A stretch of 61,592 nt of DNA, the filler included. It is 6 parts of 6 records of this genome, joined end to end, with 100 filler letters (N's around TTAATTAATTAA, not from the genome) between each part and the next. Parts side by side here need not be neighbours in the genome. Positions count along the whole stretch, not along the records: positions 32,575 to 44,518 come from SRR2962707_5454; 5 more parts are not named here. One strand, 5' to 3'. A model generated the notes under the pieces. The model was not told the DNA's origin and did no database searches. It saw nothing but the letters and a program-made list of their open reading frames with translations. Position 1 is the stretch's first letter, and each line of letters opens with the position of its first letter. Below are positions 32,475 through 47,900 of this stretch, piece after piece. The position numbers were made by a program, and so were the translations under genes.

Positions 32475-32574
32475 NNNNNNNNNNNNNNNNNNNNNNNNNN
32501 NNNNNNNNNNNNNNNNNNTTAATTAATTAANNNNNNNNNNNNNNNNNNNNNNNNNNNNNNNNNNNNNNNNNNNN
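32475..32574. other. Artificial contig spacer
   Basis: N-TTAATTAATTAA-N. Confidence 0.99.
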
Positions 32575-32749
32575 TTTTCATAGATTAACCATCAACCTAA
32601 GAGCATATCATCTATTGTTATTAATAAATGACATGATGAAATTAACCATTTGTGAAACTTCTAAATCTCAAATACAGAAGGGATCAGGGATGAATTAAAT
32701 GTAAGTATCTGACAGTCTTTGTGTTATAAAGAAGGGACAGGAATTGATT

Positions 32750-32787
32750 TACCCAATTCTAGGTAGTAGAATACCCAAAAATGGGTA
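32750..32787. promoter_or_regulatory. Tandem 16-bp palindromes, putative NarL/LuxR-type operator pair
   Basis: TACCCA-ATTC-TAGGTA (32750-32765) and TACCCA-AAAA-TGGGTA (32772-32787), 22 bp apart; same motif at 36204. Confidence 0.65.
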
Positions 32788-32791
32788 TTGG

Positions 32792-33451
32792 CTAAATGGC
32801 AGCAATCCCATTCTGAAATGCGAACTTCACCAGGCCAACCGCGTTTTTCGCCTTGGTTTTTTTCATGAGGTTCTTCCGATGGGTGTGAACAGTTTGCTCA
32901 CTCAAAAACAATTTCTCACCAATTTCCTTCATAGTCAGTTCCTGACAGATAAGCTGGAGGATCTCAATTTCCCGAGGACTGATATCAGCTCGTCTGGCGA
33001 CACCTTTATCCAATCCATCCTTTTGAACTTTTTTATGCAACGCTTTAGAGACAAGCTGATTGTAATAGAAGTCATTATTTACTACAGAAACGATTGCTTT
33101 GTGAACTTCATCAGGTTCTGCATTTTTAAGAAGGTAACTATGAACGCCTATTTCGATAAGGTCCGAAATAATTTGAAGTGAATCGTGCATAGAGATCATG
33201 ATGATCTTCACCTCCGGATGTTTCGCAGTAATTTTTTTAGAAGCCTCCCACCCATCCATGGTGGGCATTTCCAGATCCAGTAAAATCAAATCGAAATGAT
33301 TCTCGCTGAGTTTTTCCAAAGCTTCCTTCCCATTCTCTGCATCTTCCACATGGCCCACCTCCTCAAAAGACTCAAGAAGCATCATGGTGCCACGACGGAA
33401 TAAGGTATGGTCATCTGTGACCAGAATTTTTAGCTTATCAGGTTGACTCAT
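32792..33451 (-). CDS. NarL/LuxR-family response regulator
   Basis: ILVTDDH, LLDLEMPTMDG, YLLKNA, HTH ISPREIEIL...TVHTHRKNLMKK. Confidence 0.96.
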   Translation of the reverse strand: MSQPDKLKILVTDDHTLFRRGTMMLLESFEEVGHVEDAENGKEALEKLSENHFDLILLDLEMPTMDGWEASKKITAKHPEVKIIMISMHDSLQIISDLIEIGVHSYLLKNAEPDEVHKAIVSVVNNDFYYNQLVSKALHKKVQKDGLDKGVARRADISPREIEILQLICQELTMKEIGEKLFLSEQTVHTHRKNLMKKTKAKNAVGLVKFAFQNGIAAI

Positions 33452-33472
33452 CTCACTCGGTTGACCCTCAAA

Positions 33473-34240
33473 TTAATCAATCGAAGTGTCTATTACCAAA
33501 TCTACTTTTGCTCCGCCCGTTTTAGGATTAGAAAAAGTAGTTTTAGCGCCTATGGCCTGTGCCCGGTTTTTGATGTTTAGAAGACCAATCCCATCACTTT
33601 TTTTCAATACATCTTCGGGAAAACCTTTGCCATTGTCCGTATATGATATGATGGTATTAGAGTTTTCTCTTTTTATGGAAAGGTCAATCGCATTAGCATC
33701 TGAGTGCTTGATCGAGTTATTCAAAAGCTCCTGTACAATTCGATAAAGCATCAACGAATTTTCCTCTGAGAATTTGGGGTCCTCCCAATGTGAGATGTTG
33801 GTATGTAGTTCTTCTGAATTCACTTTTTCAAAGAGATCTTCAATGGCTTGTTTGAGCCCATATTTTTTTAAGATGATTGGCATCATCTGGTGGGAGATGG
33901 TTCTCACCTGATTTATTGTCTCATCAAGGTGTCCCAACACCGGCTTCAACACGTCTATATCCTTTTTCCGGTTGGCAACCTGTATGTTAAGTTTGATCGT
34001 TGAAAGCATGGCGCCCACACTATCATGCAATTCCGTTCCCAATCTACTTCGTTCTTCCTCTTGTGATTTCAAAGTTGCCGTAAGCATTTCTGACTGGTGC
34101 TTAGTTTCTAGCGATTGTACCTCAAGCTCATTTTCTAGCACTTTCCTACGATAGAGCAGGACAAAGAACACTACAGAAAAAGCCATAAGCATAACACCAA
34201 TGGTTCCGATGATAACAAGCAAGATGACTTTACCTTCCAC
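33473..34240 (-). CDS. Single-TM HisKA_3 histidine kinase with no sensor domain
   Basis: One N-terminal TM, then QEEERSRLGTELHDSVG, YRIVQELLNNSIKHS, DNGKGF, GIGLLNIKNRA; 255 aa, GTG start. Confidence 0.93.
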   Translation of the reverse strand: MEGKVILLVIIGTIGVMLMAFSVVFFVLLYRRKVLENELEVQSLETKHQSEMLTATLKSQEEERSRLGTELHDSVGAMLSTIKLNIQVANRKKDIDVLKPVLGHLDETINQVRTISHQMMPIILKKYGLKQAIEDLFEKVNSEELHTNISHWEDPKFSEENSLMLYRIVQELLNNSIKHSDANAIDLSIKRENSNTIISYTDNGKGFPEDVLKKSDGIGLLNIKNRAQAIGAKTTFSNPKTGGAKVDLVIDTSID

Positions 34241-34260
34241 AGTGACAAATTAAAAATTTA

Positions 34261-34953
34261 TTACTCGAAATCCTTGGATGGATTCAGTAATGGATCATAA
34301 CGATCCATGTGAAGGAGCACTAAAACATAGAAGAGGAGATAGTTTTTTGAAGTGTTTGCTAATAAATTAATTACAGAAATTGGAGTATACTGCTCCGCTG
34401 TAATTCCCAGGTCAAATACCAGATACTTTACAAATAAGTTTTTCAAGAAAGTGAAGGAATAGTATCCAAAGAAAGCAGTGATCAGATAAAAGCTCGGAGC
34501 TTTGGAAAGTTGAACGTTGGATTTATTTAGCAACTTCAAATAGCCTAAAACAGAAAGTGCAATGAATACAACACCTGAAAAGGTTGTTGTTATCACGTTA
34601 TGTTCATAAAAGGAATAGAGGTATATAAATGAAGGGACTGTGAGGACTACAAAAAGAGCAATCAGAAGCTTAATGAGTTTGATCTTCTCCGGAAGAATTT
34701 TCATAAAGCACCATGACATCAAAAAATAGTTCATAATTACCCACCAGTTACTTCCGATGTAGCTGTTTGGATAGAAGTATTTGATGAAAATGTAGATTCC
34801 AAAATCAAAAGAAAATGAAACAAATACGATATAAAAAATAATGGCTTTAACTGTCTTCCATTCTTTGATGAAGAATAGGAAATACAAAACCGCTGGTAGA
34901 CCAGAAAAGCGGTTAACCATATAAAACAAATCCATGAAGTCAGAGGTAGTCAA
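34261..34953 (-). CDS. ~7-TM membrane protein, paralog 2 (putative receptor/sensor subunit)
   Basis: About seven hydrophobic segments; shares SFxxD, PNSYI, NYFLMxWxFxKILP, INLLANTxKN with 35061-35741; start uncertain (TTG or the ATG six codons in). Confidence 0.8.
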   Translation of the reverse strand: MTTSDFMDLFYMVNRFSGLPAVLYFLFFIKEWKTVKAIIFYIVFVSFSFDFGIYIFIKYFYPNSYIGSNWWVIMNYFLMSWCFMKILPEKIKLIKLLIALFVVLTVPSFIYLYSFYEHNVITTTFSGVVFIALSVLGYLKLLNKSNVQLSKAPSFYLITAFFGYYSFTFLKNLFVKYLVFDLGITAEQYTPISVINLLANTSKNYLLFYVLVLLHMDRYDPLLNPSKDFE

Positions 34954-34956
34954 AGC

Positions 34957-35064
34957 TTACTTTTTAGACTCGTAAGCTTTGGAAAAAGCAACCAAAAACC
35001 AAACAACGCCTCCGAAAATAAGCGCCGTTCCATACACCACGATATTTACTATAATATCAATCAT
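34957..35064 (-). CDS. 35-aa single-TM small protein (not in ORF track)
   Basis: MIDIIVNIVVYGTALIFGGVVWFLVAFSKAYESKK; ATGA overlap with the upstream stop; fills the gap to the next gene. Confidence 0.65.
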   Translation of the reverse strand: MIDIIVNIVVYGTALIFGGVVWFLVAFSKAYESKK

Positions 35065-35741
35065 TTGGTTTTGACAGGTTTTATGGTGTCTGGGTGGCCT
35101 TTGTCTATGAGGATAAGCGTGTAGAAGAGAATGAAGTTTTTAGTTGTATTAGCCAGTAAATTAATTATGTGAATTATTCGATAGGCAGTTTTAGATATTT
35201 CTTGATCGAAAATCAAATAATTGTCAAAGATGCTCTGAAGTAGTATTATGCTATGAAAAACAAAAAAGGAAGTAACCATCCAAAAAATAGGTTGACTTTT
35301 TAGTTGACCTGATGGATTTCTGAGAAGCTCGTAATAGGTAATTAAGGACAAGAAGACGAAGCTTAAATCACTTATTAAATACAAAACAGTATTTGGCTCT
35401 AAAAATGAATAAATCCAAAAACTGACAACTGCTGCGCAAGCAAAAACAACGGAAAGCAGTTTTAGAATGTTAATGGATGAGGGTAATATTTTCTTGAAAA
35501 GCCAAAGCATCAAGAAATAATTGAAAATAAGCCAAATGTTGTTGATGATGTAGCTATTAGGAAAGACCAGACGGATAAAGAAATAATTAATATTGTCTGC
35601 TAAAAACGAAAGAAATAAGACAGAAAAGATGATAAAAAAGACACTATTCGTCTTCTTATCTCTTCTGAAGAAAAAGAACAGAAGCCCCGGTATTGCCGAG
35701 GCTCCATTTATTTCTAATAACCAATGATGTAATGTTTCCAA
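35061..35741 (-). CDS. ~7-TM membrane protein, paralog 1 (putative receptor/sensor subunit)
   Basis: About seven hydrophobic segments; clear paralog of 34261-34953. Confidence 0.82.
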   Translation of the reverse strand: METLHHWLLEINGASAIPGLLFFFFRRDKKTNSVFFIIFSVLFLSFLADNINYFFIRLVFPNSYIINNIWLIFNYFLMLWLFKKILPSSINILKLLSVVFACAAVVSFWIYSFLEPNTVLYLISDLSFVFLSLITYYELLRNPSGQLKSQPIFWMVTSFFVFHSIILLQSIFDNYLIFDQEISKTAYRIIHIINLLANTTKNFILFYTLILIDKGHPDTIKPVKTK

Positions 35742-35756
35742 TTTATCTTGTAGAAT

Positions 35757-36116
35757 TTACCCAATACCATCTGGACAAACCGGTGGACATTTTTGTCCGG
35801 AATTTGCCGGATCATCCTCATCTCTTGTATTAATTTTCGCCGCAGCGCCTAAGGACTTCATTTTTTTATCCAGAATATTACCATCAGCATCCGCAGGGAA
35901 AAGCACTAGACACTCTTCATTATTGTCATTCAGTCCTTTAAATATCCAAATGCCATCAGAGCCAGGATAATTACACAGTTTTTCCAGGATATCTCTTCCA
36001 TATAAGTATCCGTTGAGCTCGGCATCCGGGTTCGCCTTTTGATAATCCTTTACCCACTTTTTGGCCTTTGTCTTATCCATCGTACTGCCAATCTTTTTTA
36101 CATCTTTTTTTGCCAT
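35757..36116 (-). CDS. 119-aa soluble protein with C-terminal CPPVC motif (candidate signal precursor)
   Basis: No signal peptide; ...YGRDILEKL...GIWIFKG...LVLFPADADGNIL...NSGQKCPPVCPDGIG; first gene of the operon. Confidence 0.82.
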   Translation of the reverse strand: MAKKDVKKIGSTMDKTKAKKWVKDYQKANPDAELNGYLYGRDILEKLCNYPGSDGIWIFKGLNDNNEECLVLFPADADGNILDKKMKSLGAAAKINTRDEDDPANSGQKCPPVCPDGIG

Positions 36117-36145
36117 GTTATATTAAGGTTTAGTTGGTTTGAAGA

Positions 36146-36176
36146 CAATGGTAGCTTGATCTTCATTTTAATCAAA
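36146..36176 (-). promoter_or_regulatory. Bacteroidota sigma-A-type promoter of the signalling operon
   Basis: Minus strand TTTG (36176-36173), 19-nt spacer, TACCATTG (36153-36146); one mismatch to TAnnTTTG. Confidence 0.65.
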
Positions 36177-36203
36177 GAAGAGTGTAAGAAAAGGAATGAA
36201 AAA

Positions 36204-36219
36204 TACCCAAAAGTGGGTA
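36204..36219. promoter_or_regulatory. 16-bp palindrome, putative operator of the NarL-type regulator
   Basis: TACCCA-AAAG-TGGGTA; resembles the NarL 7-2-7 architecture; equidistant from two divergent -7 boxes. Confidence 0.68.
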
Positions 36220-36269
36220 GGGAGAGAGGGATGAAAAGCCAGAAATTAGATCAAAACTGAAGAAGCAAC

Positions 36270-36277
36270 TATATTTG
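36270..36277 (+). promoter_or_regulatory. Bacteroidota -7 promoter element
   Basis: TATATTTG, a perfect TAnnTTTG, 26 nt upstream of ATG36304. Confidence 0.6.
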
Positions 36278-36303
36278 CTCTCCACTTAAAAATTGATCAA
36301 AAG

Positions 36304-36411
36304 ATGGCAATGCTAGGAATAATTATCGGACTGTTTGTGTTGGCAATTCTTTGCCCATTTATCTTACCAAACAAAGCGGTAAGCAAACACAAAGGAGATC
36401 ACGTAGAGTAA
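36304..36411 (+). CDS. 35-aa single-TM small protein (not in ORF track)
   Basis: MAMLGIIIGLFVLAILCPFILPNKAVSKHKGDHVE; own -7 box and A-rich leader. Confidence 0.6.
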   Translation: MAMLGIIIGLFVLAILCPFILPNKAVSKHKGDHVE

Positions 36412-36418
36412 GAAAAGA

Positions 36419-36547
36419 TTAATTCTTTTTCTGGTTTTCTTTTCGGGCATTTACAAATGCTAACGCGTGAGCAAACGCCACTAAAAAGATCACAATATTT
36501 ACAAAAATGTTAACGCCTTCGGTTACTGCTGGATTCGTTAAGTTCAT
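36419..36547 (-). CDS. 42-aa single-TM small protein (not in ORF track)
   Basis: MNLTNPAVTEGVNIFVNIVIFLVAFAHALAFVNARKENQKKN; hydrophobic core plus basic tail. Confidence 0.5.
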   Translation of the reverse strand: MNLTNPAVTEGVNIFVNIVIFLVAFAHALAFVNARKENQKKN

Positions 36548-36587
36548 CTGTATAGTTTCTTTTGTTTGCGCTTCATTCTTAGAAGCA

Positions 36588-37739
36588 TTATGATGCGAAG
36601 ATAGGTTCTTTCATCGCTTTCAGCAATTTTCTTACATCCAATTCGTCGTTATAAACATTAGGGGATATCCTAATGGCATCTCCTCGTAGACTTACACTCA
36701 CCCGGTGCTTTTTCAATGATTGCTGGAGCAACTCCTGATCTACACTCTTCGGAAGTCGTACACCAAACAAATGATTAGCGCGCCACGCTCCTTCTTCAAT
36801 GATGTAGCCCATTGCTTTCATTTCAGCAATTGCATCAACCATCAAGTCATGCGTGTATTGCTGAATATTTTCAGGGGACCATTTAAGTATCTGTTTGATA
36901 GCCTGATGTAGCATAGGGACCAAAATAAAATTGCTGTGCTCACCCACCTCGTACCTTAAAGCTTGTTCGCGATAGTCCTCTTGATAATTGACTAATTGCG
37001 CAAAGTCTTCACTGTTCTTTCTGTTGATCCAGTTTTCTTCCAAAGGAGTGCCTCCATCGAAAGCGGACCCGTAATAAGCCAGGCCTATCGAATATGGTCC
37101 CAAAAGCCATTTATATCCTGCACAAATAAGTGCATCAGGCCGAATGTCTTTAACGCTAAAAGGTAATGCACCTACCGACTGTGTCCCATCGATGATAAGC
37201 AAGCCACCCACTTCGTCAAGTTTTTCCCGGATCTTTTTCAGTTGAAATAACGTGCCATCAGACCAATGCACATGCCCAATGGCTACAACTCTCGTTTCTT
37301 CGTCAATGGACGCTAAAATTTTTTCATTCCAGCTTTCACCTCTCTTGGCACTGTCTGTAGGTGAAATGACATTAATAGAAATACCTTTTTCTTTTAACTT
37401 CAACCACGGATAAACATTGCTTGGAAATTGTGCTTGTGCCAATAGTATTTCTCCATCTTTGAATGGAATGTTTTGTGTAACGTTCGCTAATCCATAAGAA
37501 GCCGATGGAACAATCACCACCCTATTTGGCTCATCATTGACTATAAGCTTGGAAAAGATTCGTCTCAATTGGTCACTTTCTTTGAAAAAATCTTCTCCTG
37601 AGATTTTTGCCGGATTCCTTTTCTGTTTTAATCCGGCAACTCCGGCCTTTTCCACTTTTTTCATCAGTGGCGACATGTAAGCACAGTTTAGGTATGCGTT
37701 TTTACGTTGGAGCAAAAATTTTTGTCGCTGACATTTCAT
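36588..37739 (-). CDS. Class V PLP-dependent aminotransferase / cysteine desulfurase-like
   Basis: YLNCAYMSP, QFPSN, IDGTQSVG, AGYKWLLGP (PLP lysine), IRISPNVYN. Confidence 0.92.
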   Translation of the reverse strand: MKCQRQKFLLQRKNAYLNCAYMSPLMKKVEKAGVAGLKQKRNPAKISGEDFFKESDQLRRIFSKLIVNDEPNRVVIVPSASYGLANVTQNIPFKDGEILLAQAQFPSNVYPWLKLKEKGISINVISPTDSAKRGESWNEKILASIDEETRVVAIGHVHWSDGTLFQLKKIREKLDEVGGLLIIDGTQSVGALPFSVKDIRPDALICAGYKWLLGPYSIGLAYYGSAFDGGTPLEENWINRKNSEDFAQLVNYQEDYREQALRYEVGEHSNFILVPMLHQAIKQILKWSPENIQQYTHDLMVDAIAEMKAMGYIIEEGAWRANHLFGVRLPKSVDQELLQQSLKKHRVSVSLRGDAIRISPNVYNDELDVRKLLKAMKEPIFAS

Positions 37740-37755
37740 GAGTTATAATTACTAT

Positions 37756-38073
37756 ATGACATTCAAGATATTGGATTCTGAACAAAAGGCAGAGGCTTTT
37801 TTTGAAGATGGTGTACCCAAATTAATCAGAGTGCAAGAAAAGGAGATATGCATAGTACGAAAGGGGAAAAAGTACTATGCGTTTGATAATGCCTGTCCAC
37901 ACATGGGGGCTAAACTCCATCAAGGAAACACCAATCCTTTCTACGAAATTGTATGTCCCCTACACACCTATCGTTTTCACATGAAGACAGGTGAGGAATC
38001 CAATAAAAGATGCAGACCCATGAAAACGTATTATGTCCACTCTAATGAAGGTGGTCTTTTTATTGATTGCTGA
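37756..38073 (+). CDS. Rieske [2Fe-2S] ferredoxin
   Basis: CPHMG...VCPLH ligand boxes; start set at ATG37756 to avoid overlap with the divergent gene. Confidence 0.88.
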   Translation: MTFKILDSEQKAEAFFEDGVPKLIRVQEKEICIVRKGKKYYAFDNACPHMGAKLHQGNTNPFYEIVCPLHTYRFHMKTGEESNKRCRPMKTYYVHSNEGGLFIDC

Positions 38074-38076
38074 GAG

Positions 38077-39273
38077 TTATCCGATTCGGAAGAACTTAAC
38101 TACACCAACTAACCAATCAGCTATACTCTGTGCAACTTCATTTCCTGACCCTCGTCCTACTATATACAGGACAAACAGCACATAAATGCTCAACAATAAG
38201 TAAGATTTACGCTTGCCAAAGTAACTACCGCTTGTAAAGATGATTACTGCCAGTACTGTAAGCAACCAGAGTAAGAACCGTAGCTCACTACTGAGATCCA
38301 CAATCTCAGGAGGCATTTGAATCGGACCATTGATGATGGTGAAAATGAATAGAGGGAAACCTAATGCAAAGCAAATGTCGAAAATGTTGCTACCAAGTGC
38401 GTTTGAGATTGCGTCATCGTACTGCCCTCTTTTGGCATCTTTTATTGAAATGATCGTGTCAGGAAAGCTCGAGGCTGCAGATGCCAAAATGAGCGCAACA
38501 AACATTACCGGAATGTTTAATCCATTAAACTCACCCAGCCCAGCTACCTGGTAGGTATCCGAACCAATCCACTCACAGGCTAAAACCAGGAAGTAACAGA
38601 CAAGCGCAATCGAGATGGTAGAAAAAACCAAAAGAGACCAGGCTCTGCGGTTACTTATGGCATTATTGCCAATAAAGACACGCTCCAGATCAAATGTGAT
38701 GAGTCCCTTTAAGAAAGGACCTTGCGGTTCTTCAGGGCTTTCAAATACATCTTCGTCCAGATGGCCTTCCTCCAGAAGTTCTTCGCGCTCCGATTTTTTC
38801 ATCGTTGCAAACATGTAAACGATGTAAACAACATAAACAAGCATGAGCAACATGCCGTGGTACCAGTATAATGTGGATCCGCTAATCAAAATGAGGAAGA
38901 TCAGTTCAGCAATAATCAATGCAATCCCGTCTCTCAACAAGACTTTTCGCGATACCTCTACTCGCTTGGTCATTTTCATCCCTATCACTGCAAGCACTGC
39001 AACAGCAGGAATTACCATACCATTAAAAATGGCGCTACCTGCCGTGGTTCCAATTCCTCCTGAAAAACCTTCAGCGTCAGTTAGGACAAATAAGAAGAAC
39101 AACGAAGTAAATACCTCCGGCATGGAGCTGGCGATGGCGTTGATAGTTGCACCTCTTACACCTTCAGAGAGATTTCTGCCAATGAATTCAGATGCTGTCA
39201 TAAAGCCGTCTCCGGCTCTCCAGATTATTATGCAACAAAACGTTATTAGGAGTAGGGGGATGATTATGCCCAT
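38077..39273 (-). CDS. Na+/Ca2+ antiporter (CaCA family)
   Basis: Alpha repeats GATINAIASSMPE...GSAIFN and ASSFPD...LGSNIFD. Confidence 0.93.
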   Translation of the reverse strand: MGIIIPLLLITFCCIIIWRAGDGFMTASEFIGRNLSEGVRGATINAIASSMPEVFTSLFFLFVLTDAEGFSGGIGTTAGSAIFNGMVIPAVAVLAVIGMKMTKRVEVSRKVLLRDGIALIIAELIFLILISGSTLYWYHGMLLMLVYVVYIVYMFATMKKSEREELLEEGHLDEDVFESPEEPQGPFLKGLITFDLERVFIGNNAISNRRAWSLLVFSTISIALVCYFLVLACEWIGSDTYQVAGLGEFNGLNIPVMFVALILASAASSFPDTIISIKDAKRGQYDDAISNALGSNIFDICFALGFPLFIFTIINGPIQMPPEIVDLSSELRFLLWLLTVLAVIIFTSGSYFGKRKSYLLLSIYVLFVLYIVGRGSGNEVAQSIADWLVGVVKFFRIG

Positions 39274-39437
39274 GTATATTTTATTCGTTCAGTGTTTAAA
39301 GCGGTGACTCTTTTAGCTGGAGAAGGCCTAAATTAACAAAGATTTCATTCAGGCAAACAAGTTCCACTATCTTTTATCATCAGATAAGTCAACTTCAAAC
39401 TGGTTTTGTCTAATTTTTCGGCTCAAAAGAAGCGTGT

Positions 39438-40199
39438 ATGTATATCAATCTGTCAGGTTTAAACATCCTGGTGACAGGAGCAAGTAGAGGGATAGGCAAA
39501 GCTCTGGCCACCAAATTGGCTGAGGCAGGAGCAACTATAGCAGTGCATTACAACAAAAATGTACGTGAAGCGGAAAACCTTGCTCATATTCTTGGAAATG
39601 AATCAAAAGCGTTCCAAGCGGACTTTTCAAAACCGGATGAGGCGGCCAAATTATTTGAGCGTGTGAGTTTGGAAATGGGAAGCATAGAAATTGTGATAAA
39701 CAATGCAGGCCTGGCCAAGCCGTCCACCATTGACTCAAAGGATGATGAATGGATGAAATCATGGAATGAGACAATGATGGTAAACCTGAATTCTTCTGCG
39801 ATTATTTGCAAGAAGGCCGTTCAGCATTTCATCAGTCGGAAAGCAGCCGGAAGAATCATCAATATTGCTTCTCGTGCGGCTTTTAGAGGAGAAGAAGCCG
39901 AATATATTGCCTATGCAGCGTCAAAAGCAGGCCTGGTTTCATTGACCAGGTCAATTGCCAGATCTTACGGAAAGGAAGGAGTTAAGGCATTTGTGATCGC
40001 TCCCGGCTTTGTGCGAACAGACATGTCACAGGAGTTTATGCAGCAATACGGAGAAGACCATGCAAAGGGGGATTTGGCACTGGAAAGGCTCACCGAGCCA
40101 AAGGACATTGCTCCACTGGTCACTTTTATTGCAAGTGGAATGGCCGATCATGCAACGGGCGCCACTTTCGACATCAATGCGGGAAGCTATTTACACTAA
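39438..40199 (+). CDS. Short-chain dehydrogenase/reductase (FabG-like)
   Basis: TGASRGIG, NNAG, YAASK, APGFVRT. Confidence 0.95.
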   Translation: MYINLSGLNILVTGASRGIGKALATKLAEAGATIAVHYNKNVREAENLAHILGNESKAFQADFSKPDEAAKLFERVSLEMGSIEIVINNAGLAKPSTIDSKDDEWMKSWNETMMVNLNSSAIICKKAVQHFISRKAAGRIINIASRAAFRGEEAEYIAYAASKAGLVSLTRSIARSYGKEGVKAFVIAPGFVRTDMSQEFMQQYGEDHAKGDLALERLTEPKDIAPLVTFIASGMADHATGATFDINAGSYLH

Positions 40200-40260
40200 T
40201 GAGGTTTCATTTTAGGGATTAATTCCTAAATTAGAAGGACGAAACACAACTACAGCGATA

Positions 40261-40680
40261 ATGGAAGACAATATTAAAAACCACCTGAAAGCATTAATCC
40301 AACTTTCGATTATTGATCGTGATTTTGGGGAGCCTGAAAAAACCTATGTTTATACGATTGGAAAAGCAAATCGAGTTCCGGAAAAGGAAATTGACGAGTT
40401 AGTAAAAGAGGTATTAAATACCAAAGAAAATAGCGATGTGAACTTTGAAGGCCTGCTTTCGGAAGAAAGATTCGATTACCTGTACGATGTGATCCAGTTG
40501 ATGAAAATTGATGGGGAAGTCTTTCTAACAGAAATAAGATATTGCGAGGATGTAGCTGAAAAACTTGGCTATGAGAAAAAGGTAGTCAAGAAAATGTCTT
40601 CCAGAATTTATGGAGATCCATCAATCACCGGTAACAGAGAGGCATTAATGAAAGAGGCCAATAAATATTTGAAAAAGTAA
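40261..40680 (+). CDS. TerB-family protein
   Basis: Helical; IDRDFGEPEK and MKIDGEVFLTEI TerB-like acidic motifs. Confidence 0.75.
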   Translation: MEDNIKNHLKALIQLSIIDRDFGEPEKTYVYTIGKANRVPEKEIDELVKEVLNTKENSDVNFEGLLSEERFDYLYDVIQLMKIDGEVFLTEIRYCEDVAEKLGYEKKVVKKMSSRIYGDPSITGNREALMKEANKYLKK

Positions 40681-40694
40681 CCTACTAAGAAATT

Positions 40695-41090
40695 ATGAGC
40701 ATTAAGGCGAAACTAAGTGTGCTGGTTCAGTTAGCGAATATCGATGGTGAATTTGCTGGTGAAGAAAAAGATTTGATTTATATGATTGGCAAGGCCAATG
40801 GTATCAGCGAAGAAGAAATTAATAATATGGTGGAAAGCCCTGAGCCTCTTCCTCCTTTGAGTACCATGTCTGAAGATGATAAGTTCGAATATTTATTTCA
40901 TTTAGTACAGCTTATGAAAATCGACAGCCAGGTGTATTTATCGGAAATTAAGTTTTGCGAAGAGTTGGCAGAAAAGCTGGGCTTCAAGCGAAACGTGATT
41001 TCAGAATTGTCCGCAAGAATTTACAGCGATCCGGCCATAGCCTCGGATGTCGCCTCCCTCAAGCGGGAAGTTAGAAAACACAGACATTGA
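40695..41090 (+). CDS. TerB-family protein (tandem paralog)
   Basis: LANIDGEFAGEEK and LMKIDSQVYLSEIKFCEELAEKLG, aligning with the upstream gene. Confidence 0.78.
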   Translation: MSIKAKLSVLVQLANIDGEFAGEEKDLIYMIGKANGISEEEINNMVESPEPLPPLSTMSEDDKFEYLFHLVQLMKIDSQVYLSEIKFCEELAEKLGFKRNVISELSARIYSDPAIASDVASLKREVRKHRH

Positions 41091-41096
41091 TTTCAG

Positions 41097-41124
41097 ATCC
41101 CGATGAATACCATCGGGATTTTTT
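41097..41124. terminator. Intrinsic terminator between convergent genes
   Basis: ATCCCGATG-AATAC-CATCGGGAT followed by a T tract. Confidence 0.8.
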
Positions 41125-41947
41125 ATGATTCTTTTGGAATAAGCTGTTGATGAGTAATGCCAAAATGATGTTCCAGTTTTGAGAGAAACTCGTCCTCATG
41201 TAAAATGCCCGACTCTTTTGTTTCACCCAAATCCGTAATCTTCAATTTACGATCGGTTAAGGTTACCCGACCATTAGGAAGAAGACGAGTGGCCAGTTTT
41301 TTTTGAGTAAATGGAGATGCAGAGGATGATTGGTGATACTCGCACATTTCCATAAACTGAATGAGCTGCTTTTCCTGAGTGGTAAACCGAAGCTTCGTTT
41401 CATAATAACTTGTATCATTAGAAACTTTTAGAATCAGGTTTTCATCCGGATCTTCCTCAATTTTCCAGTATTTGGTATAGTCCACCTGCACTTCTCCAAC
41501 CTTAATTTTCAATGGATTAACGATTCCATCACCAAAGCCAACATCGGCCAGCCACAAGACATCATCAATCCCAACAACAATTCCCATATGATCAAATGGC
41601 CGTCCAAACGTCATTGTTTCCTGACTAAATACTTCAGCCGAAATGATATGGCAATCAAAACCTAAATTGCTTAGCAGGTGATAGAAAAGGCCGTTTAGTT
41701 CATAGCAAAAGCCACCCCTTCCCCGCTTGACCACCTTATCAAAAATTTTTTTGTAATCCAGTATGATTTTGCTCCGATAGTGAATGTCCAGGTTTTCAAA
41801 CGGGATGTGTATAAGGTGAGCCTTTTGCAGTTCTTTCAGATAGGTCAGTGATGGAGGTTTTTTTTCTAATCCAATTCGCTTCAGGTAAGCACCCACATCT
41901 ATTTTGGATGCTTTAGGGCTGTTTTGGAAAAAGTTTAGCTTTCTCAA
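41123..41947 (-). CDS. Arylamine N-acetyltransferase
   Basis: IPFENL, RGGFCYELN (Cys), DHM (His), ADVGFG (Asp) catalytic triad. Confidence 0.94.
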   Translation of the reverse strand: MRKLNFFQNSPKASKIDVGAYLKRIGLEKKPPSLTYLKELQKAHLIHIPFENLDIHYRSKIILDYKKIFDKVVKRGRGGFCYELNGLFYHLLSNLGFDCHIISAEVFSQETMTFGRPFDHMGIVVGIDDVLWLADVGFGDGIVNPLKIKVGEVQVDYTKYWKIEEDPDENLILKVSNDTSYYETKLRFTTQEKQLIQFMEMCEYHQSSSASPFTQKKLATRLLPNGRVTLTDRKLKITDLGETKESGILHEDEFLSKLEHHFGITHQQLIPKES

Positions 41948-43023
41948 TTTTTAATGTTCAGCTCCTGAGTGAGATTACCAATCATGTTGTTTAATGCTTC
42001 CTGCCATGTGACATCTGCATCCCATTCACCTACATGTACATTTTTTGAAATATTCTGACGTATGTAAAACTTGTAGACGATGGCATCTCTTGGAATGGTT
42101 TTCACACGCGTTTGATCCGGCATGATTGGAATAATAGAGACAAATCCTGTTTCACCCGGAGGCACTTCGTAATCCAGCATTTCTTTTACTATGCCAGCAG
42201 AAGACCGGACAGACCGTAACAAAAACTGATATCGGTTTCTTTTCAAATCATCATCAGACATTGGATCAATGATTTCATACTCATAAGGGTATGATTGTAT
42301 TAGTTGTTCAAGCTGACGGTTTTTCTCAGCAACTTCCTGATTGAATCTTTTGACATTTTCTAACACCTCTGTGTCAGATATGTTGGTAGAATCCAATGGG
42401 CTGAACCGCTCCACTGCGAGTTTACTTCTTCGCAAAATACCAGGATAATTTTTCAACAATGTATTCTCCACAATCGAAAGTCCTTTGAGTACATTGGGCT
42501 TTTCCGGTATCAGAAAATTGGCCAGTTCCTGATCTGCTCTTCGCACTTCTTTTCCAACATTTAACAATAATGTGTAGAGATCTGCTGCTTCCTGATAAAA
42601 GGCATCACCCCCATCTTTGATTAAGCGACTGCTGCCACTGAATGGAGCCATCAAAAACTCAAAACCATTATTTGTCTGACTAATCAAAATAATGTTTTCT
42701 ATTCTTCGCTGATTAAACAACTCTACATAGGCAAGCCGTGCATGGTGGCTTGCAGTGTAATTGATATCACTGAGATAAAAGATGGCATCTATTCCCATGG
42801 TCACGAATGCCTGATGCACTTGTGCGAGGAATTTTTGGGGATCTCCTACGGAGACAAACTCATCGTTCCTTTCAGGAATTGAAAAAATAACAGCGGTACG
42901 CTCACTCCCTAGCTTTTCCGGTACCTTCAGCGTCTTGTTGAAAGAAACATAATCGTACAGCGGGGTTTGACCATAAAGCAAACCCCCAATCATATAAAAT
43001 AGTACCGTAAAAAATCTCTTCAT
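41944..43023 (-). CDS. Secreted hypothetical protein
   Basis: 359 aa; Bacteroidota-style signal peptide followed by Gln (LLYG/QT); ATGA overlap with the NAT gene. Confidence 0.8.
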   Translation of the reverse strand: MKRFFTVLFYMIGGLLYGQTPLYDYVSFNKTLKVPEKLGSERTAVIFSIPERNDEFVSVGDPQKFLAQVHQAFVTMGIDAIFYLSDINYTASHHARLAYVELFNQRRIENIILISQTNNGFEFLMAPFSGSSRLIKDGGDAFYQEAADLYTLLLNVGKEVRRADQELANFLIPEKPNVLKGLSIVENTLLKNYPGILRRSKLAVERFSPLDSTNISDTEVLENVKRFNQEVAEKNRQLEQLIQSYPYEYEIIDPMSDDDLKRNRYQFLLRSVRSSAGIVKEMLDYEVPPGETGFVSIIPIMPDQTRVKTIPRDAIVYKFYIRQNISKNVHVGEWDADVTWQEALNNMIGNLTQELNIKN

Positions 43024-43097
43024 TAGTTGAACACTAAAGTGCTAATTTTATAAGAACTCAACTCTCAAATATCTCAATTTAGTATAACTATATAACT

Positions 43098-43673
43098 ATG
43101 AAAACCCGATGTACCTGGTGTGCCAACTCCTTTGATGAATATGTTCGCTATCATGATGAGGAATGGGGAGTTCCGGTCCATGATGATCAAAAGCATTTTG
43201 AATTCCTGGTATTGGAAAGCGCTCAGGCAGGTTTAAGCTGGGCCACAATTCTTAAGAAAAGGGAAGGATACCGAAAGGCATTTGCCAAATTCGACTACCG
43301 AACAGTAGCGAAATATGGTGAAGGGATGGTTGAGGATCTTTTGCGAGATGCCTCGATCATTCGAAATAAGGCCAAAATAGAAGCAACGATTAATAATGCT
43401 CGCAGATTTATGGAAGTGCAGGGGGAGTTCGGCACTTTCGATAAATACATCTGGCAATTCGTGGGTGGCAGACCAATTGTGAATAGTTGGATAACCATGA
43501 AAGAAGTCCCAGTTACAACAAAAGAGTCAGACGCCTTATCGAAAGATTTAAAAAAGAGAGGGTTTAAGTTTGTCGGCTCCACCACCATGTATGCTCACAT
43601 GCAAGCCATAGGACTGGTTAATGATCATACCACGGATTGCTTCAGGTATGAGGAGTTGAAAAATAAAATTTGA
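43098..43673 (+). CDS. tag: DNA-3-methyladenine glycosylase I
   Basis: RCTW, YHDEEWG, LESAQAGLSW, GFKFVG, NDHTTDC. Confidence 0.96.
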   Translation: MKTRCTWCANSFDEYVRYHDEEWGVPVHDDQKHFEFLVLESAQAGLSWATILKKREGYRKAFAKFDYRTVAKYGEGMVEDLLRDASIIRNKAKIEATINNARRFMEVQGEFGTFDKYIWQFVGGRPIVNSWITMKEVPVTTKESDALSKDLKKRGFKFVGSTTMYAHMQAIGLVNDHTTDCFRYEELKNKI

Positions 43674-43711
43674 CCGACAGTCGATTAAATTTGTGAGCTA
43701 AAGAGTTAGGG

Positions 43712-44518
43712 ATGATTGAGAAACTGGAGGAAATAAAGCATCGATTTGAGGAGGTAGGTCAGCTTATTGTACAACCGGACATTGTCACGGACATGGAGAA
43801 GTATGGCAAGCTGAATAAAGAATACAAGGATCTAGAAAAAATAGTAGTCAAGTATAAGGCATATACTCAGGCCAAAAGCAACATGAAAAATGCTAAAGAG
43901 GTGCTGAGTACAGAAAAGGATCCGGAATTTCGTGAAATGGCGAAAGCCGAAATCGAGGAACTTGAACCGCAAATTGAATCTCTGGAAGAAGAGCTGAAGT
44001 TTATGCTCATTCCTAAAGACCCCAATGACAGCAAAAATGTGATTCTGGAAATTCGTGCTGGCACAGGTGGAGATGAGGCATCTATTTTTGCGGGAGATCT
44101 TTTTAGAATGTACAAATCCTATGCAGAGGACCAAAACTGGTCTTTTTCTATATTGAATTTTAGTGAAGGAAGCGCCGGAGGATACAAGGAAATAGTGGCT
44201 TCTGTAGAAGGAGAGGATGTTTATGCAAAACTAAAATTTGAGTCCGGAGTTCATCGCGTGCAAAGAGTGCCAGCAACTGAATCCCAAGGGAGAGTACATA
44301 CTTCCGCAGCAACTGTTGCTGTTTTGCCAGAGGCAGAAGAGGTGGATGTGGAGCTAAACATGGGAGATATTAGAAAAGATACATTCCGGGCATCTGGTGC
44401 CGGAGGTCAGCACATCAACAAAACAGAATCTGCTGTTCGGTTGACACATATTCCATCTGGTTTGGTAGTAGAGTGTCAAGATGGTCGCTCACAGCATGCC
44501 AACTATGATAAAGCATTG
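43712..44518 (+). CDS. prfA: Peptide chain release factor 1, 3' truncated
   Basis: [29 protein letters not shown] (PxT motif), [16 protein letters not shown] -7 box at 43686. Confidence 0.97.
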
Positions 44519-44618
44519 NNNNNNNNNNNNNNNNNNNNNNNNNNNNNNNNNNNNNNNNNNNNTTAATTAATTAANNNNNNNNNNNNNNNNNNNNNNNNNN
44601 NNNNNNNNNNNNNNNNNN
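44519..44618. other. Artificial contig spacer
   Basis: N-TTAATTAATTAA-N. Confidence 0.99.
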
Positions 44619-44985: not shown

Positions 44986-47900
44986 ATGGCGTCTGAGCTG
45001 GCACGGCAGCTCGGCCTTGTCCGCCCGAAAGATGTTGTGCAAGTGGAGAAGAAAAAGGCCGCGAGTGTGTTGTACTCGTCTCGCGAAGCTGTGCGCGTGT
45101 CACGGGCTCAAGTCCGGGAAATCGCGCACAACGGCTTCATTGAGTTGCTCCACCTTGAGCCGAGACTGCAGGAGTTTGAAGAAACGCTTTTTGGAAAGCC
45201 GACGGTTCAGTTTGACCGAGGCTTGCTTACTGCGGACGAAACTTCTGATGTGGATGAACTCATCGCGCAATTTTTACGGATTATCTCCCCTTTTCTGGAC
45301 CGTCGCGCAGCGTGGAAAGCCGTGGAGCACCTTATCCGCTGCTTTGAAGCGAATATTTACAACGTGGACGCGCTGATGGCTGCGGCACTGCCCTTCCACC
45401 AGACTGAATTCTTTGGTCGCCTCATTGGCACTTGCCACATTGCCGACTCCCGACTTTGGCACTTTCTTGACCGGGCAAAGCGAAACAAGTCCCCGCTTGT
45501 GCGTTCGACGCTGGTGCAGCAGTGCGTGAAGGAAAAACAGCTTGTCGACTTCATCGCCACCGCCACTCAGTCGGCTCTCAAAGAAGGCTATGCCGTGGCA
45601 CGACCGTGTTTGTCATTTGCTGCCGCGCTTTTCCTCGAAGTCCTTCAACGTGTTGACGCAGGTGCGTTTTTTTTGCGTTGTACCTGCCGAACTGCACTGC
45701 AGGGCATTCCCTTCATGGTTGTCTGTGGTGCCGTTTCGATTGACTCGTCACCTACGCTCCGTCCATTTTTTTGACTTCCCGCGCGTAGGCCAAGAAGCGC
45801 TCCTTCGTGCACTGCTTGCATTTTCCTTAGAATGCGTTTCGTTTAAGGGGACAGCAGAAGCCCAATCTGCTGGACTGCTGCTCCTGTGTCAGTTTGCCAG
45901 CCGCCACCCATTGCCCCCAACCGTTTTCGGACAAATTGTGACCCTTGTATGCGATTCCATGCCACGGTTCGTTGGTCAACCAGTGTGCCCCGCGTTCCAT
46001 CGCTTAGCCTGTCACCTGCCGTTTCCGTATCCGTGTTTGCTTGCCTCATTGTGTCTTCTTGTTGTTTGGCTCCGAAACCACCACGGTGTTCATTTTTACC
46101 TGGCAATCAACAGCTCAACGGATCAACGGCAAGCTATTTTTGTTGCCCTAGCTTCCCTGTATCAAGCCCAAGGAGCATCTGGAGCTGTGGCGCCGCAGTT
46201 CCCAGCACCAGCGCTGCAACAGCTCATGCGTATCGCTCAGCAAGACATTGGATCTCTGACGCAGGCTGCTGCCGCGGCTGGGTATAGAATGGTACCATTA
46301 CTGCTTCCACTTGTCAACACGCTCCTAGCGCACATTGATCAACAGCAGGAGGCCGGAACTGCGGATGAAGAACTGCTCAAGTGCGTTGTTTCGTCCATTG
46401 TGCCGTGCAATCGCAAATGTGCATTGTTGTTTGTTGCGTCTGAATGAAGGGTCCCGGTTTTTGGTTGCCGTGCTGCTACGCAGGCCCCTCTCCATCGTGC
46501 ACACACTTGCTCGAAGCCACTTCTTTCCTGCAAGTCGTTCCAACGCCCCAACACCTGCAGTACCCACTGATCCGTTGCCCGCTCCCGTGGCACGTGATTT
46601 GTGCCGTCGCTTTCTCTCCGCCTACTTTGCGTTTTCTCAAAGAGAGCGCGCCACAGCAGGCTCGCTGCCGCTTGAGCAATGTGCGGCTGAGTTCCGCTGT
46701 GTGATGGACCTCTTGGTGGCACGATTTTCGGTGAGTTTCAGGCGTTACGCCCAGCTTTTGTGACAAAAACAGTGTTCTTTGCAAGAACGGCCGTCTTGGC
46801 ATTTACAGTCGTTGGTCATTGTCACGTTGCTTGCTTTTGCAGGAATCATTCGATGCCGGCGTGACAGCGTTCGTGGGCGCTGCAGCGGGGAACAACAGTG
46901 ACTCCCGACATCAGCGCCTCGCTTTCCTGTCGTCACTGCAGTCGCCAATGTATAGCACACTTGCAAATGCGCACGCCGATGGCGATGCCGACACAGCCTC
47001 ACGGCTCACTGTAAGCATGGCTTTGCGGCATGCAAATGCAACCGTCCGGCTCCACGCTGTTGAGGCATTACAGGAACGTTTGCGGCCCAGGAAAAATGAC
47101 GATGAAGTGACCCAACTACAACGTCCCGCCTGCCAAGACCTGTTGCACTTGGGACTCCATGAGACCGACTGCAAAGTGGCCGCACGTTTTTTCGGCAGTC
47201 GATCAATATTCGCGCAAATTGCGGTTGGTGCAGGGTCAAGCAGTGAAATTAAAAGTTGCTTGGCAGCAAGTCTCGAGTCATGGACGTTACGAGGTGTGCA
47301 GAATGTGAATGCACGCGGCAACAGCGCAGTTCCACCAGTGGGGCACGCTGGGGCTTTGCAAATGAGGTCTCGCACGCAGCGTGTTTGCTCTGCGATTCTC
47401 CGCAGACTTCATGATGCGCTCCGCCAGAGCCAAAGTGGCGGCGAGGAAGACGTTCTGAGCGAAGATGAGGCCTGTGAGCACTCGCGCGCAGGGACAGTCA
47501 TCGCATCAGGCACAGACCTTCAAAACCGTATTGTAGCAGCAGTCCTTCCGTTTGTCCCCCTTGACGCAGTTTCCATCGAAACAGCTGCAACTGCTGGTCC
47601 AGCGCTGCAGTGTCTCGCTAACAGCGGTCATCCACTTTTTCGTGATGCGTCCACCGCACTCGAAGCTGCGGCCACTGGAATCGAAGCTGCCCGCGAAGCC
47701 CATAAAGGTTCAGGCAAGCGAGGCAAAGGGAAACAGGCAAATACAGCTTCGATATTGCCGACAGAAGCTTTGGCAGGTGTCAACACAGCACTGTGGTCTG
47801 TTGCTCGTTCACTGGCAACTAGTTTTCTTGTTCTCCCTGACGACCTTCAATTGGAAGAGGCTGACGAGCAGGAACTCGACGCATGTCGTGAGCTGTGGCG

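Follow-up and report, generated by a model that had tools for sequence, protein, structure and literature searches.

Within a 61,592-nucleotide stretch of DNA made of six joined parts (hereafter the window), an 11.9-kb contig resembling the genus Ekhidna (positions 32576-44518) carries the gene of a 119-amino-acid (aa) protein whose short carboxy-terminal tail contains the motif Cys-Pro-Pro-x-Cys (CPPxC). This small protein belongs to a widespread family of Bacteroidota from sea and soil, recognised by that motif, whose genes are linked to genes for seven-transmembrane-helix (7TM) proteins and for a kinase and regulator, and its tail is replaced from strain to strain together with the adjacent 7TM gene. 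We give roughly even credence to the reading that the small protein is an accessory subunit whose cysteine-bracketed tail acts as a specificity element for the 7TM partner, which in turn drives the kinase. On this reading it would be the soluble member of a conserved four-part signalling cassette, alongside one to three 7TM proteins, a kinase that is anchored in the membrane and has no outer sensor domain, and a regulator of LuxR type.

In the mechanism that we propose, the folded core would be the constant body of the protein and a flexible acidic linker would carry the short tail, in which variable side chains would be presented by the invariant C-P-P-x-C-P scaffold, held together by a disulfide bond or a bound metal, or simply kept rigid by its prolines. 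The tail would act as the specificity element contacting the cognate 7TM partner; the 7TM protein would relay its state within the membrane to the conserved single helix of the kinase, and the kinase would then set the phosphorylation of the regulator. For the form without signal peptide that is found in Ekhidna, this contact would be at the cytoplasmic face.

Many bacterial kinases are devoid of a sensor domain, and to our knowledge their input is mostly unexplained outside a few Firmicute and enterobacterial cases. The two unannotated families described here would form a recurrent input module across Bacteroidota, present in 15% of the sampled genomes, and the strain-level swapping of tail and receptor offers an experimental handle through matched versus mismatched pairs. 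At the least, two sizeable families of 'hypothetical proteins' gain a context and a testable role.

Joint replacement of the tail and the first 7TM gene

Compared with the corresponding locus of an Ekhidna genome (L001), the small protein is identical at 112 of 119 positions (94%), and five of the seven changes fall within its last 12 residues. Only two amino-acid changes lie in residues 1-100, and the tails read SGQKCPPVCPDGIG in the window and SGSPCPPECPIGFG in L001, with C-P-P-x-C-P untouched. Two 7TM genes, memA and memB, follow the small gene; between the two loci the regulator is 99%, memB 89%, the kinase 84% and memA 42% identical, the flanks being 84-99% identical. Over 32577-35141 and 35761-44518, the DNA of the contig shares 84-87% identity with that of an Ekhidna sp. 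genome; the match to the genome of L001 is lost exactly over 35142-35760, an interval with no nucleotide match to genome G003.

The same interval stands out in contigs of two runs, X3 and X4, from public marine and estuary metagenomes. A 19.4-kb contig of X3 holds 683 unrelated letters in place of 692 letters of the window (35142-35833), between flanks that are about 97% alike (79 other letters in 32600-35141 and 35 in 35834-37000), and in X4 one contig ends at 35141 and another begins at 35777. A second pair of close genomes, with loci L010 and L018, repeats the pattern, at distances of 0.07 in the core, 0.35 in the tail, 0.54 in the 7TM protein, 0.15 in the kinase and 0.02 in the regulator. 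Across 17 Ekhidna-clade loci, and with the distance of five flanking genes regressed out, tail distance correlates with 7TM distance (partial Mantel r=0.42, p=0.0014, 5000 permutations) and core distance does not (r=0.007, p=0.47), in a test that ignores shared ancestry among these loci.

In closely similar strains, the tail and the first 7TM gene are thus replaced together as one hypervariable cassette, and the core, the kinase helix and the regulator are conserved. Within the tail, the D/P/C-P-P-x-C-P scaffold is invariant and the intervening positions are hypervariable. Tail and 7TM protein vary jointly as would a matched lock and key, and the tail behaves, as far as sequences can tell, like a specificity element changing together with the 7TM gene. 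The positions of all these features are collected in Table 1.

Table 1. Genes of the cassette and parts of the small protein, with their positions in the window.
Feature	Position	Strand	Basis and remarks
CPPxC-tail protein gene, 119 aa	35757..36116	minus	ORF and translation, ATG start; first gene of the cassette; no signal peptide
Core alpha/beta domain, residues 1-86	35859..36116	minus	AlphaFold2 prediction; conserved between strains
Linker, residues 87-100	35817..35858	minus	SLGAAA (clade-specific), then a variable acidic stretch
Tail, residues 101-119 and stop codon, DDPANSGQKCPPVCPDGIG	35757..35816	minus	Alignments and motif logo
Hypervariable cassette: small protein from about residue 95 to 119, 15-bp spacer, memA residues 1-200	35142..35833	minus	Contig comparisons
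memA, 226 aa, seven-helix membrane protein	35061..35741	minus	Predicted N-out C-in from Lys/Arg bias; hypervariable allele
memB, 230 aa, paralogue of memA (about 40% identity)	34261..34953	minus	Conserved between strains
Sensor histidine kinase, 255 aa	33473..34240	minus	Pfam HisKA_3 2.2e-08, HATPase_c 3.1e-12
LuxR/NarL-type response regulator, 219 aa	32792..33451	minus	Pfam Response_reg 1e-27, GerE 1.2e-16

The signalling cassette and its recurrence in Bacteroidota

The genes of the cassette are tightly packed, with gaps of 15 bp between the small gene and memA, 20 bp between memB and the kinase, and 21 bp between the kinase and the regulator, the latter being the last gene before the end of the contig and 79-99% identical across full-length Ekhidna-clade matches. 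The kinase has one N-terminal membrane helix followed by the HisKA_3 and HATPase_c domains, and is without an extracytoplasmic domain. The same cassette is present in 20 of 23 Ekhidna-clade loci, that is, in all those with enough sequence, the second 7TM gene of memB type occurring in only some of these genomes (L001, L002, L006, L007, L016 and L021, of which L007 is from the culturable Ekhidna lutea DSM 19307). Because the whole 12 kb is syntenic, this conservation alone amounts to shared descent.

The linkage was therefore followed in distant genomes. A profile search of 401 genomes drawn from across the phylum detected the family in 59 of them, and a single genome held as many as five matches. 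Sixty loci were fetched around such matches and their 758 called genes of at least 80 aa were clustered by BLAST: the recurrent families are the CPPxC proteins (57 loci), the kinases and regulators (56) and the 7TM proteins of 205-256 aa (45), the next family being found in six loci. In the profile-based count, 55 7TM genes share the strand of a CPPxC gene and follow it downstream at -80 to +400 nt, the CPPxC genes numbering 61 in all. An iterated profile started from memA of the window reaches the transmembrane proteins beside distant CPPxC genes, and a single profile round built from Ekhidna sequences only already reaches eight distant loci at E<=1e-4. The CPPxC/7TM pair precedes either short HisKA_3 kinases with a LuxR regulator or PAS-HisKA-HATPase kinases, often hybrid; in every case the kinase begins with one or two helices at its N-terminus and is devoid of an outer domain (Pfam scan of 40 proteins). 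The gene linkage goes well beyond shared descent, and the link of the small protein to a membrane complex and a kinase, first drawn from the window alone, holds in distant genomes, where the order small protein, 7TM protein, kinase recurs. Judged from these sequences, the pair is an input module for kinases that appear unable to sense outside the cytoplasm alone.

Within the 60 loci, no protease, ABC exporter or modifying enzyme is recurrent, and no metal-handling or redox gene recurs nearby. The genes that follow the regulator in L001 and five other loci have no output in common. A family of about 420 aa is found in six of the 60 loci and follows the regulator on the same strand in L097, L100, L107 and L114; the single member scanned (L100) is without a Pfam family, and in one sub-clade such proteins may serve as an output or as a fifth part of the system.

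The 7TM proteins themselves, namely memA, memB and their distant relatives, have no Pfam match, and memA and memB have no NCBIfam match either. From the Lys/Arg bias, both window copies are predicted to be seven-helix proteins with an outer N-terminus and an inner C-terminus. In the family alignment only F153 reaches at least 80%, and neither a well-conserved polar residue nor a conserved His or Cys is found; because there is no conserved polar residue, the family resembles a receptor or scaffold more than it does an enzyme. In memA of Ekhidna, conservation is lowest in the predicted cytoplasmic loops 1 and 3, with an identity of 0.25 compared with 0.45 overall, a variability that would fit a cytoplasmic acidic tail meeting basic loops. 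No fused forms of memA were found among longer proteins, which is weak evidence, and a complex prediction of memA with the small protein, in which alignments were not used, scored 0.01 and gives no evidence either way.

In the kinase, residues 1-32 are the most conserved part, with a mean pairwise distance of 0.12 compared with 0.23-0.50 elsewhere in 17 Ekhidna-clade sequences. The single membrane helix, MEGKVILLVIIGTIGVMLMAFSVVFFVLLYRRK, is nearly invariant in these loci, whereas the ATPase domain differs by 42-50%. Such conservation of a helix would be expected for a specific intramembrane contact.

It may also be envisaged that the small protein and the 7TM protein are products of a stress response under the control of the kinase and regulator, as liaIH is in operons of Lia type, with no part in sensing. 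This we consider very unlikely. The small gene heads an operon that could be auto-induced, and a terminator-like hairpin 52-76 nt past its stop codon would favour transcripts of the small gene over those of the genes that follow; however, the pair is kept with very different kinases, none of which has its own sensor domain beyond the cytoplasm. Moreover, the membrane helix of the kinase is conserved, and effectors are not expected to swap as a matched cassette. The hairpin (35681-35705, minus strand; 10 pairs, -17.5 kcal/mol, followed by a T-run) lies inside the codons of the first helix of memA, and roughly half of the Ekhidna loci have a comparable one. It lacks covariation support: in the register of the window 53.7% of cells pair, as in shuffles, and RNAalifold retains only three pairs at -1.12 kcal/mol. 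As the hairpin partly follows from the S-G-x-P-G codons, it was dropped as a finding.

Anatomy, motif and relatives of the small protein

The translated open reading frame contains all the strings that had been read from the letters of the window: AKKWVKDY, GYLYGRDILEKL, GIWIFKG, LVLFPADADGN, KKMKSLGAAAKINTRDEDD and PANSGQKCPPVCP. A longer version is not possible, as the frame already begins at the first start codon to follow an in-frame stop, and the N-terminus of the protein is Lys-rich and without a hydrophobic stretch, in agreement with the absence of a Sec signal proposed before. The frame is evidently a real gene and not a chance one, because it has close homologues, relatives in 23 genome loci and 197 cluster representatives. 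In a word-indexed protein search, 26 of 32 candidates had E<=0.001 (2.8e-67 to 1.6e-32; 58-88% identity), and these close homologues are, where named, 'hypothetical protein' of Ekhidna; the gene is single-copy in each of three Ekhidna genomes searched. The 197 representatives come from a full HMMER scan at E<=1e-3, with 41 remaining at 1e-10 and five at 1e-30. The protein has no Pfam family (best C5-epim_C, E=0.12, 12.3 bits for a cut-off of 23.3) and no NCBIfam family (best PstS, E=0.039, 13 bits for a cut-off of 205), and none of 16 distant relatives scores above the cut-offs of these two databases. Matches to the small protein and to memA in the ESM Atlas are unnamed Bacteroidota clusters only. 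The 470-bp spacer lying upstream of the small gene holds a short frame on the plus strand (36296-36400, starting with MAMLGIIIGLFVLAILCPFILPNK), which would encode a putative tiny hydrophobic peptide.

The alpha/beta core suspected from the sequence is also predicted by AlphaFold2, with mean pLDDT 81.9 and pTM 0.69 when an alignment of 62 single-domain relatives is supplied, compared with pLDDT 66.9 for the 27-row Ekhidna alignment; the 62 rows were selected for CP..C near the end, and the Cys invariance seen there holds by construction. Predicted secondary structure comprises H15-28, E36-38, H41-48, E55-62, E68-75 and E108-110, the two helices packing against the sheet formed by 36-38, 55-62 and 68-75, with pLDDT blocks of 80-93 across residues 11-80. 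The linker is variable, as had been noted: residues 87-98 are predicted to be disordered (pLDDT below 50), and the stretch from SLGAAA to D101 differs in length and sequence within the Ekhidna alignment. S88-A92 (SLGAA) is invariant in the 27 rows, and SLGAAA is confined to the Ekhidna clade, not being present in distant relatives. No fold could be assigned because neither Foldseek nor VIA-align found a solved relative: Foldseek against the PDB returned nothing at E<=0.001 (best E 0.41), and VIA-align over 48,161 chains gave four chains with Z of at least 2 (best 2.3). A PDB sequence profile matched YpmB (2gu3_A) alone, weakly, at E=0.15 over 44 positions only, and PepSY gave no Pfam match at E<=1 for the small protein or the 16 distant relatives scanned.

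The tail motif, whose CPPVCP codons occupy 35772-35789 in the window, can be written across the family as [D/E/N]-x-[G/S]-x-P-C-P-P-x-C-P. Conservation in the 27-row Ekhidna-clade alignment is complete at C110, P111 and P115 and reaches at least 90% at P112, C114, D101, P103 and A104. The homologue alignments bear out that CPPxC is conserved well beyond the genus: among 149 more distant representatives in the matches listed, 120 have CP..C and 97 have CPP.C, and 216 domain instances include 139 with CPxxC (105 of them CPPxC), nine with another CxnC and 68 with neither, the latter being mostly one half of a tandem protein, or fragments. The upstream D/N that had been singled out is conserved too, position -5 from the first Cys being D, E or N in 92% of 194 distinct instances (51%, 23% and 18%, respectively). 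In the same logo, -3 is G in 42% and S in 27%, -1 is P in 47%, and after the first C-P, +2 is P in 76%, +3 is variable and precedes the second Cys, and +5 is P in 47%. The last motif stands a median of eight residues from the C-terminus, and in many members outside Ekhidna the tail continues as ...S-P/E-L-N-S.

Relatives differ in architecture and in export. Two domains stand in tandem in 67 of the 149 listed distant representatives; the ones whose full sequences were read are lipoproteins with a CPPxC motif that is internal, after the first domain. The idea that two motifs form one Cys4 site in such proteins was weakened by the many tandems that keep the motif in one half only. By a crude rule, 57 of the 149 have an N-terminus that is lipobox-like (35) or otherwise hydrophobic (22), and single-domain forms of about 100-120 aa mostly begin directly with the domain. 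Among the 61 CPPxC genes of the 60 loci, 28 have a signal peptide or lipobox and 33 do not, and CP..C is retained in 26 of the latter. In a quick tree, export state changes at least six times, against about 20 for shuffled labels, with well-supported branches forcing only one change; a signal-less clade (L072a, L073 and L078) is nested among exported sisters at short distances (SH-aLRT 85-91). Exported and signal-less forms coexist around one 7TM gene, since a single operon of L072 (6980-8469) starts with a CPPxC gene lacking a signal, continues with a 7TM gene and adds a closely related CPPxC paralogue that bears a signal peptide.

Export also goes along with kinase type, as labelled by best match to four exemplars and checked by Pfam for the 40-protein subset: signal-less genes are accompanied by 29 short HisKA_3-like kinases and two of PAS type, with no kinase seen in two cases, and signal-bearing genes by 16 of PAS type and six short ones, with none in six. 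That signal-less forms replace the PAS domain of short kinases was not retained, the correlation being strong and not absolute. A lone CPPxC gene (L011, 5995-6345), 66% identical to the window protein, was found in a metagenome-assembled genome labelled Haliangium, beside a gene for an Lhr-type helicase and with no 7TM or kinase gene next to it. It has about 56% G+C in a contig of 68% G+C and could be due to gene transfer or mis-assembly.

The conserved cysteines invite the alternative, raised in the sequence-only reading, of a cytoplasmic CxxxC switch that would control the membrane complex. Such a switch is compatible with everything seen and would fit the signal-less Ekhidna form, and a redox- or metal-sensing role of both cysteines and of the acidic residue at -5 is plausible. 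As an explanation of the whole system, in which [D/E/N]...C-P-P-x-C-P would be the sensing site (a redox dithiol/disulfide, or of Cu/Zn type) and the variability of the tail secondary, we regard it as rather unlikely. The strong conservation of both Cys, of the prolines and of the residue at -5 speaks for it, as does the retention of CP..C in most signal-less genes, where a purely structural disulfide is unexpected. The genes senC and prrC are located inside the regBA and prrBA kinase operons. The CxxxC of Sco/SenC/PrrC proteins is reported to bind copper through two Cys and a distant His, and the 118-aa CutF is described with a putative CxxxC copper site (PMC7558416). However, Sco proteins have a thioredoxin fold and the distant His, whereas here there is no SCO1-SenC Pfam match, no thioredoxin-fold protein among the structure-search matches listed, and no conserved His or Met partner in the alignments; CutF has its motif midway along the chain, together with a Sec signal. 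Variants that keep only the first Cys (CPPYGD..., CPPASD...) retain the rest of the tail, down to the ...S-P/E-L-N-S ending, the 60 loci offer no recurrent metal or redox genes, and a fixed chemical sensor would leave the strain swapping of Cys-flanking residues and of the 7TM gene unexplained.

The same sequence-only reading had favoured a precursor whose tail is released, possibly by self-processing, as a disulfide-closed ring. Conservation of CPPxC and of D/E/N and the covariation of tail and 7TM protein stand in its favour; the release itself fares less well, given the missing export signal, the lack of recurrent processing and export genes, the absence of conserved residues of catalytic type from the 7TM family, the internal motifs and the packed tail. 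In its full form, the core would be the leader of a pheromone precursor, the tail would be cut, ring-closed, secreted and sensed by the 7TM protein and kinase, and the alleles would be communication types, a scheme that we find distinctly unlikely. The cassette swap between strains, the invariant scaffold with hypervariable x and flanking residues, and the short distance from motif to C-terminus all suit a pheromone. The HisKA_3 kinase and LuxR-type regulator of the cassette are of the same types as ComP and ComA. Four adjacent same-strand genes for a small signal product, a membrane partner, a kinase and a regulator are described for ComQXPA and agrBDCA (PMC4008528), and polymorphism of comQ, of comX and of comP at its 5' end is reported to define pherotypes, with the regulator conserved (PMC6334282). 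A variable signal tail and receptor that spare the regulator would, by analogy, mirror this polymorphic signal-and-receptor block.

Nevertheless, the cassette is not filed as a ComQXPA member because neither the window cassette nor the recurrent neighbours include a ComQ-like prenyl transferase. Differently from agr, no AgrB-like peptidase was found, the 7TM protein is without a Pfam family or a conserved His or Cys, and the regulator is of GerE/LuxR and not LytTR type. Moreover, the product here is a folded protein of 119 aa rather than a peptide of about 50 aa (AgrD about 46 aa), with many exported-lipoprotein or tandem relatives that carry CPPxC internally; the window protein is without a signal peptide, its tail is packed on the core in the AlphaFold2 model, and in a diderm cell the exported relatives would reach the periplasm and not the exterior. 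The residues before GA of SLGAAA misfit the double-glycine leader pattern. A double-glycine-leader RiPP or bacteriocin precursor (NHLP, Nif11) was likewise rejected, with no NCBIfam match, no recurrent exporter or peptidase in the 60 loci, and SLGAAA being an Ekhidna-only feature.

Weighing the specificity reading and related systems

Returning to the tail as specificity element of an accessory subunit, several observations weigh against it. The tail adjoins memA, such that recombination over memA may exchange the tail in the same event. Hitch-hiking of this kind predicts a declining correlation and denser synonymous differences in the tail, and both must be counted here: going along the gene, the correlation with 7TM distance drops from 0.51 in the tail to 0.36 in the linker and 0.23 in the core, and relative to L001 the tail has five synonymous and five non-synonymous differences in 19 codons, compared with 10 and two in the 100 codons of the core. 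Besides the shared ancestry that the partial Mantel test ignores, the Cys pair is missing from a third of the domain instances, the variants that keep only the first Cys belong on this side as well, and AlphaFold2 predicts the tail to be folded back on the core and not free, its motif flank packing onto the core sheet as the short strand E108-110 (residues 101-119, pLDDT about 76). Lastly, the exported and signal-less classes share the same predicted 7TM topology (N-out C-in in 22 of 24 and 30 of 31 partners, respectively), and one simple docking face cannot serve both classes unless the signal-less forms are exported by an unrecognised route. Signal-less forms may use the other face of the 7TM protein, may leave the cytoplasm otherwise, or the proposed contact may be wrong; an inverted 7TM topology was rejected as an explanation, the Lys/Arg bias being the same in both classes. 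Two points nonetheless favour something beyond hitch-hiking in the joint replacement: the scaffold is fixed while the positions between change, and the left end of the tract, at 35141, is the same in three independent comparisons, with boundaries inside both genes.

Related arrangements exist outside Bacteroidota. Lia is not known to have a Cys motif or a strain-variable cassette. Several reports describe the Lia, Vra and Gra kinases, which have almost no outer domain, as dependent on accessory proteins encoded next to them (PMC10269926, PMC3543457, PMC9380581, PMC3128592), with LiaF as an inhibitor in the membrane and LiaX as a further modulator, soluble or at the surface, for which an action through LiaF and LiaS has been proposed (PMC10269926). 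The cassette resembles LiaFSR(-LiaX), VraTSR and GraXSR in its near-domainless kinase (HisKA_3 in Lia and Vra), its NarL/LuxR-type regulator and its accessory proteins, but there is no sequence or family relation, the former are from Firmicutes and ours from Bacteroidota, and the LiaS model scores 56.5 bits against a cut-off of 450. Thus, the cassette may work like a Lia-type three-component system, and it is not a member of that group because its membrane proteins match no family.

A second parallel is provided by small proteins that act outside the cytoplasm. NlpE, which acts with CpxA, and RcsF are lipoprotein or periplasmic co-sensors, both with functionally important cysteines. QseG is reported to be a small accessory protein outside the cytoplasm that activates the kinase QseE (PMC12691602). 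QseG, NlpE and RcsF act directly on the periplasmic domain of a kinase or on IgaA, whereas the kinases considered here are without such a domain, a 7TM protein stands between, and the window protein has no signal peptide. By analogy, the logic proposed for the cassette would be that of LiaF and LiaX with LiaS and of QseG with QseE, the proteins being unrelated to those.

A bolder form of the specificity reading, which we hold to be unlikely, would see in these Bacteroidota a polymorphic matched ligand-receptor module, in which the Cys-Pro-Pro-x-Cys-Pro loop closing the small folded protein would serve as cognate signal to a new seven-helix receptor, itself driving a kinase without outer sensor domain, the alleles of tail and receptor being exchanged as one cassette. 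If true, strain-specific recognition types would exist in Bacteroidota as a pherotype-like system, possibly for self/non-self or type-specific signalling in marine members of the phylum. We know of no peptide- or protein-based pherotype-like system in Bacteroidota, and a literature search touching such systems found none described among the best 10 of 60 papers. Searches for CPPXC returned only unrelated papers on polyphosphate probes, and nothing specific was found on accessory membrane proteins of HisKA_3 kinases in Bacteroidetes.

As for the remainder of the window, the pieces joined in it are unlikely to come from one organism. The spacer TTAATTAATTAA, within N-runs at 32475-32575 and 44519-44618, separates the contigs; the outer pieces have 50-63% G+C and the middle piece about 40%, and the right-hand piece has a CT-rich repeat at its start and an Ala/Ser/Leu-rich open reading frame of 1206 aa (46819-50439) that does not resemble Ekhidna. 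On the Ekhidna-like contig itself, two adjacent paralogous genes (40261-40680 and 40695-41090) encode proteins of 139 and 131 aa with about 40% mutual identity; the first, the sole one scanned, is without a Pfam family, and both are 76-100% conserved across the Ekhidna-clade loci.

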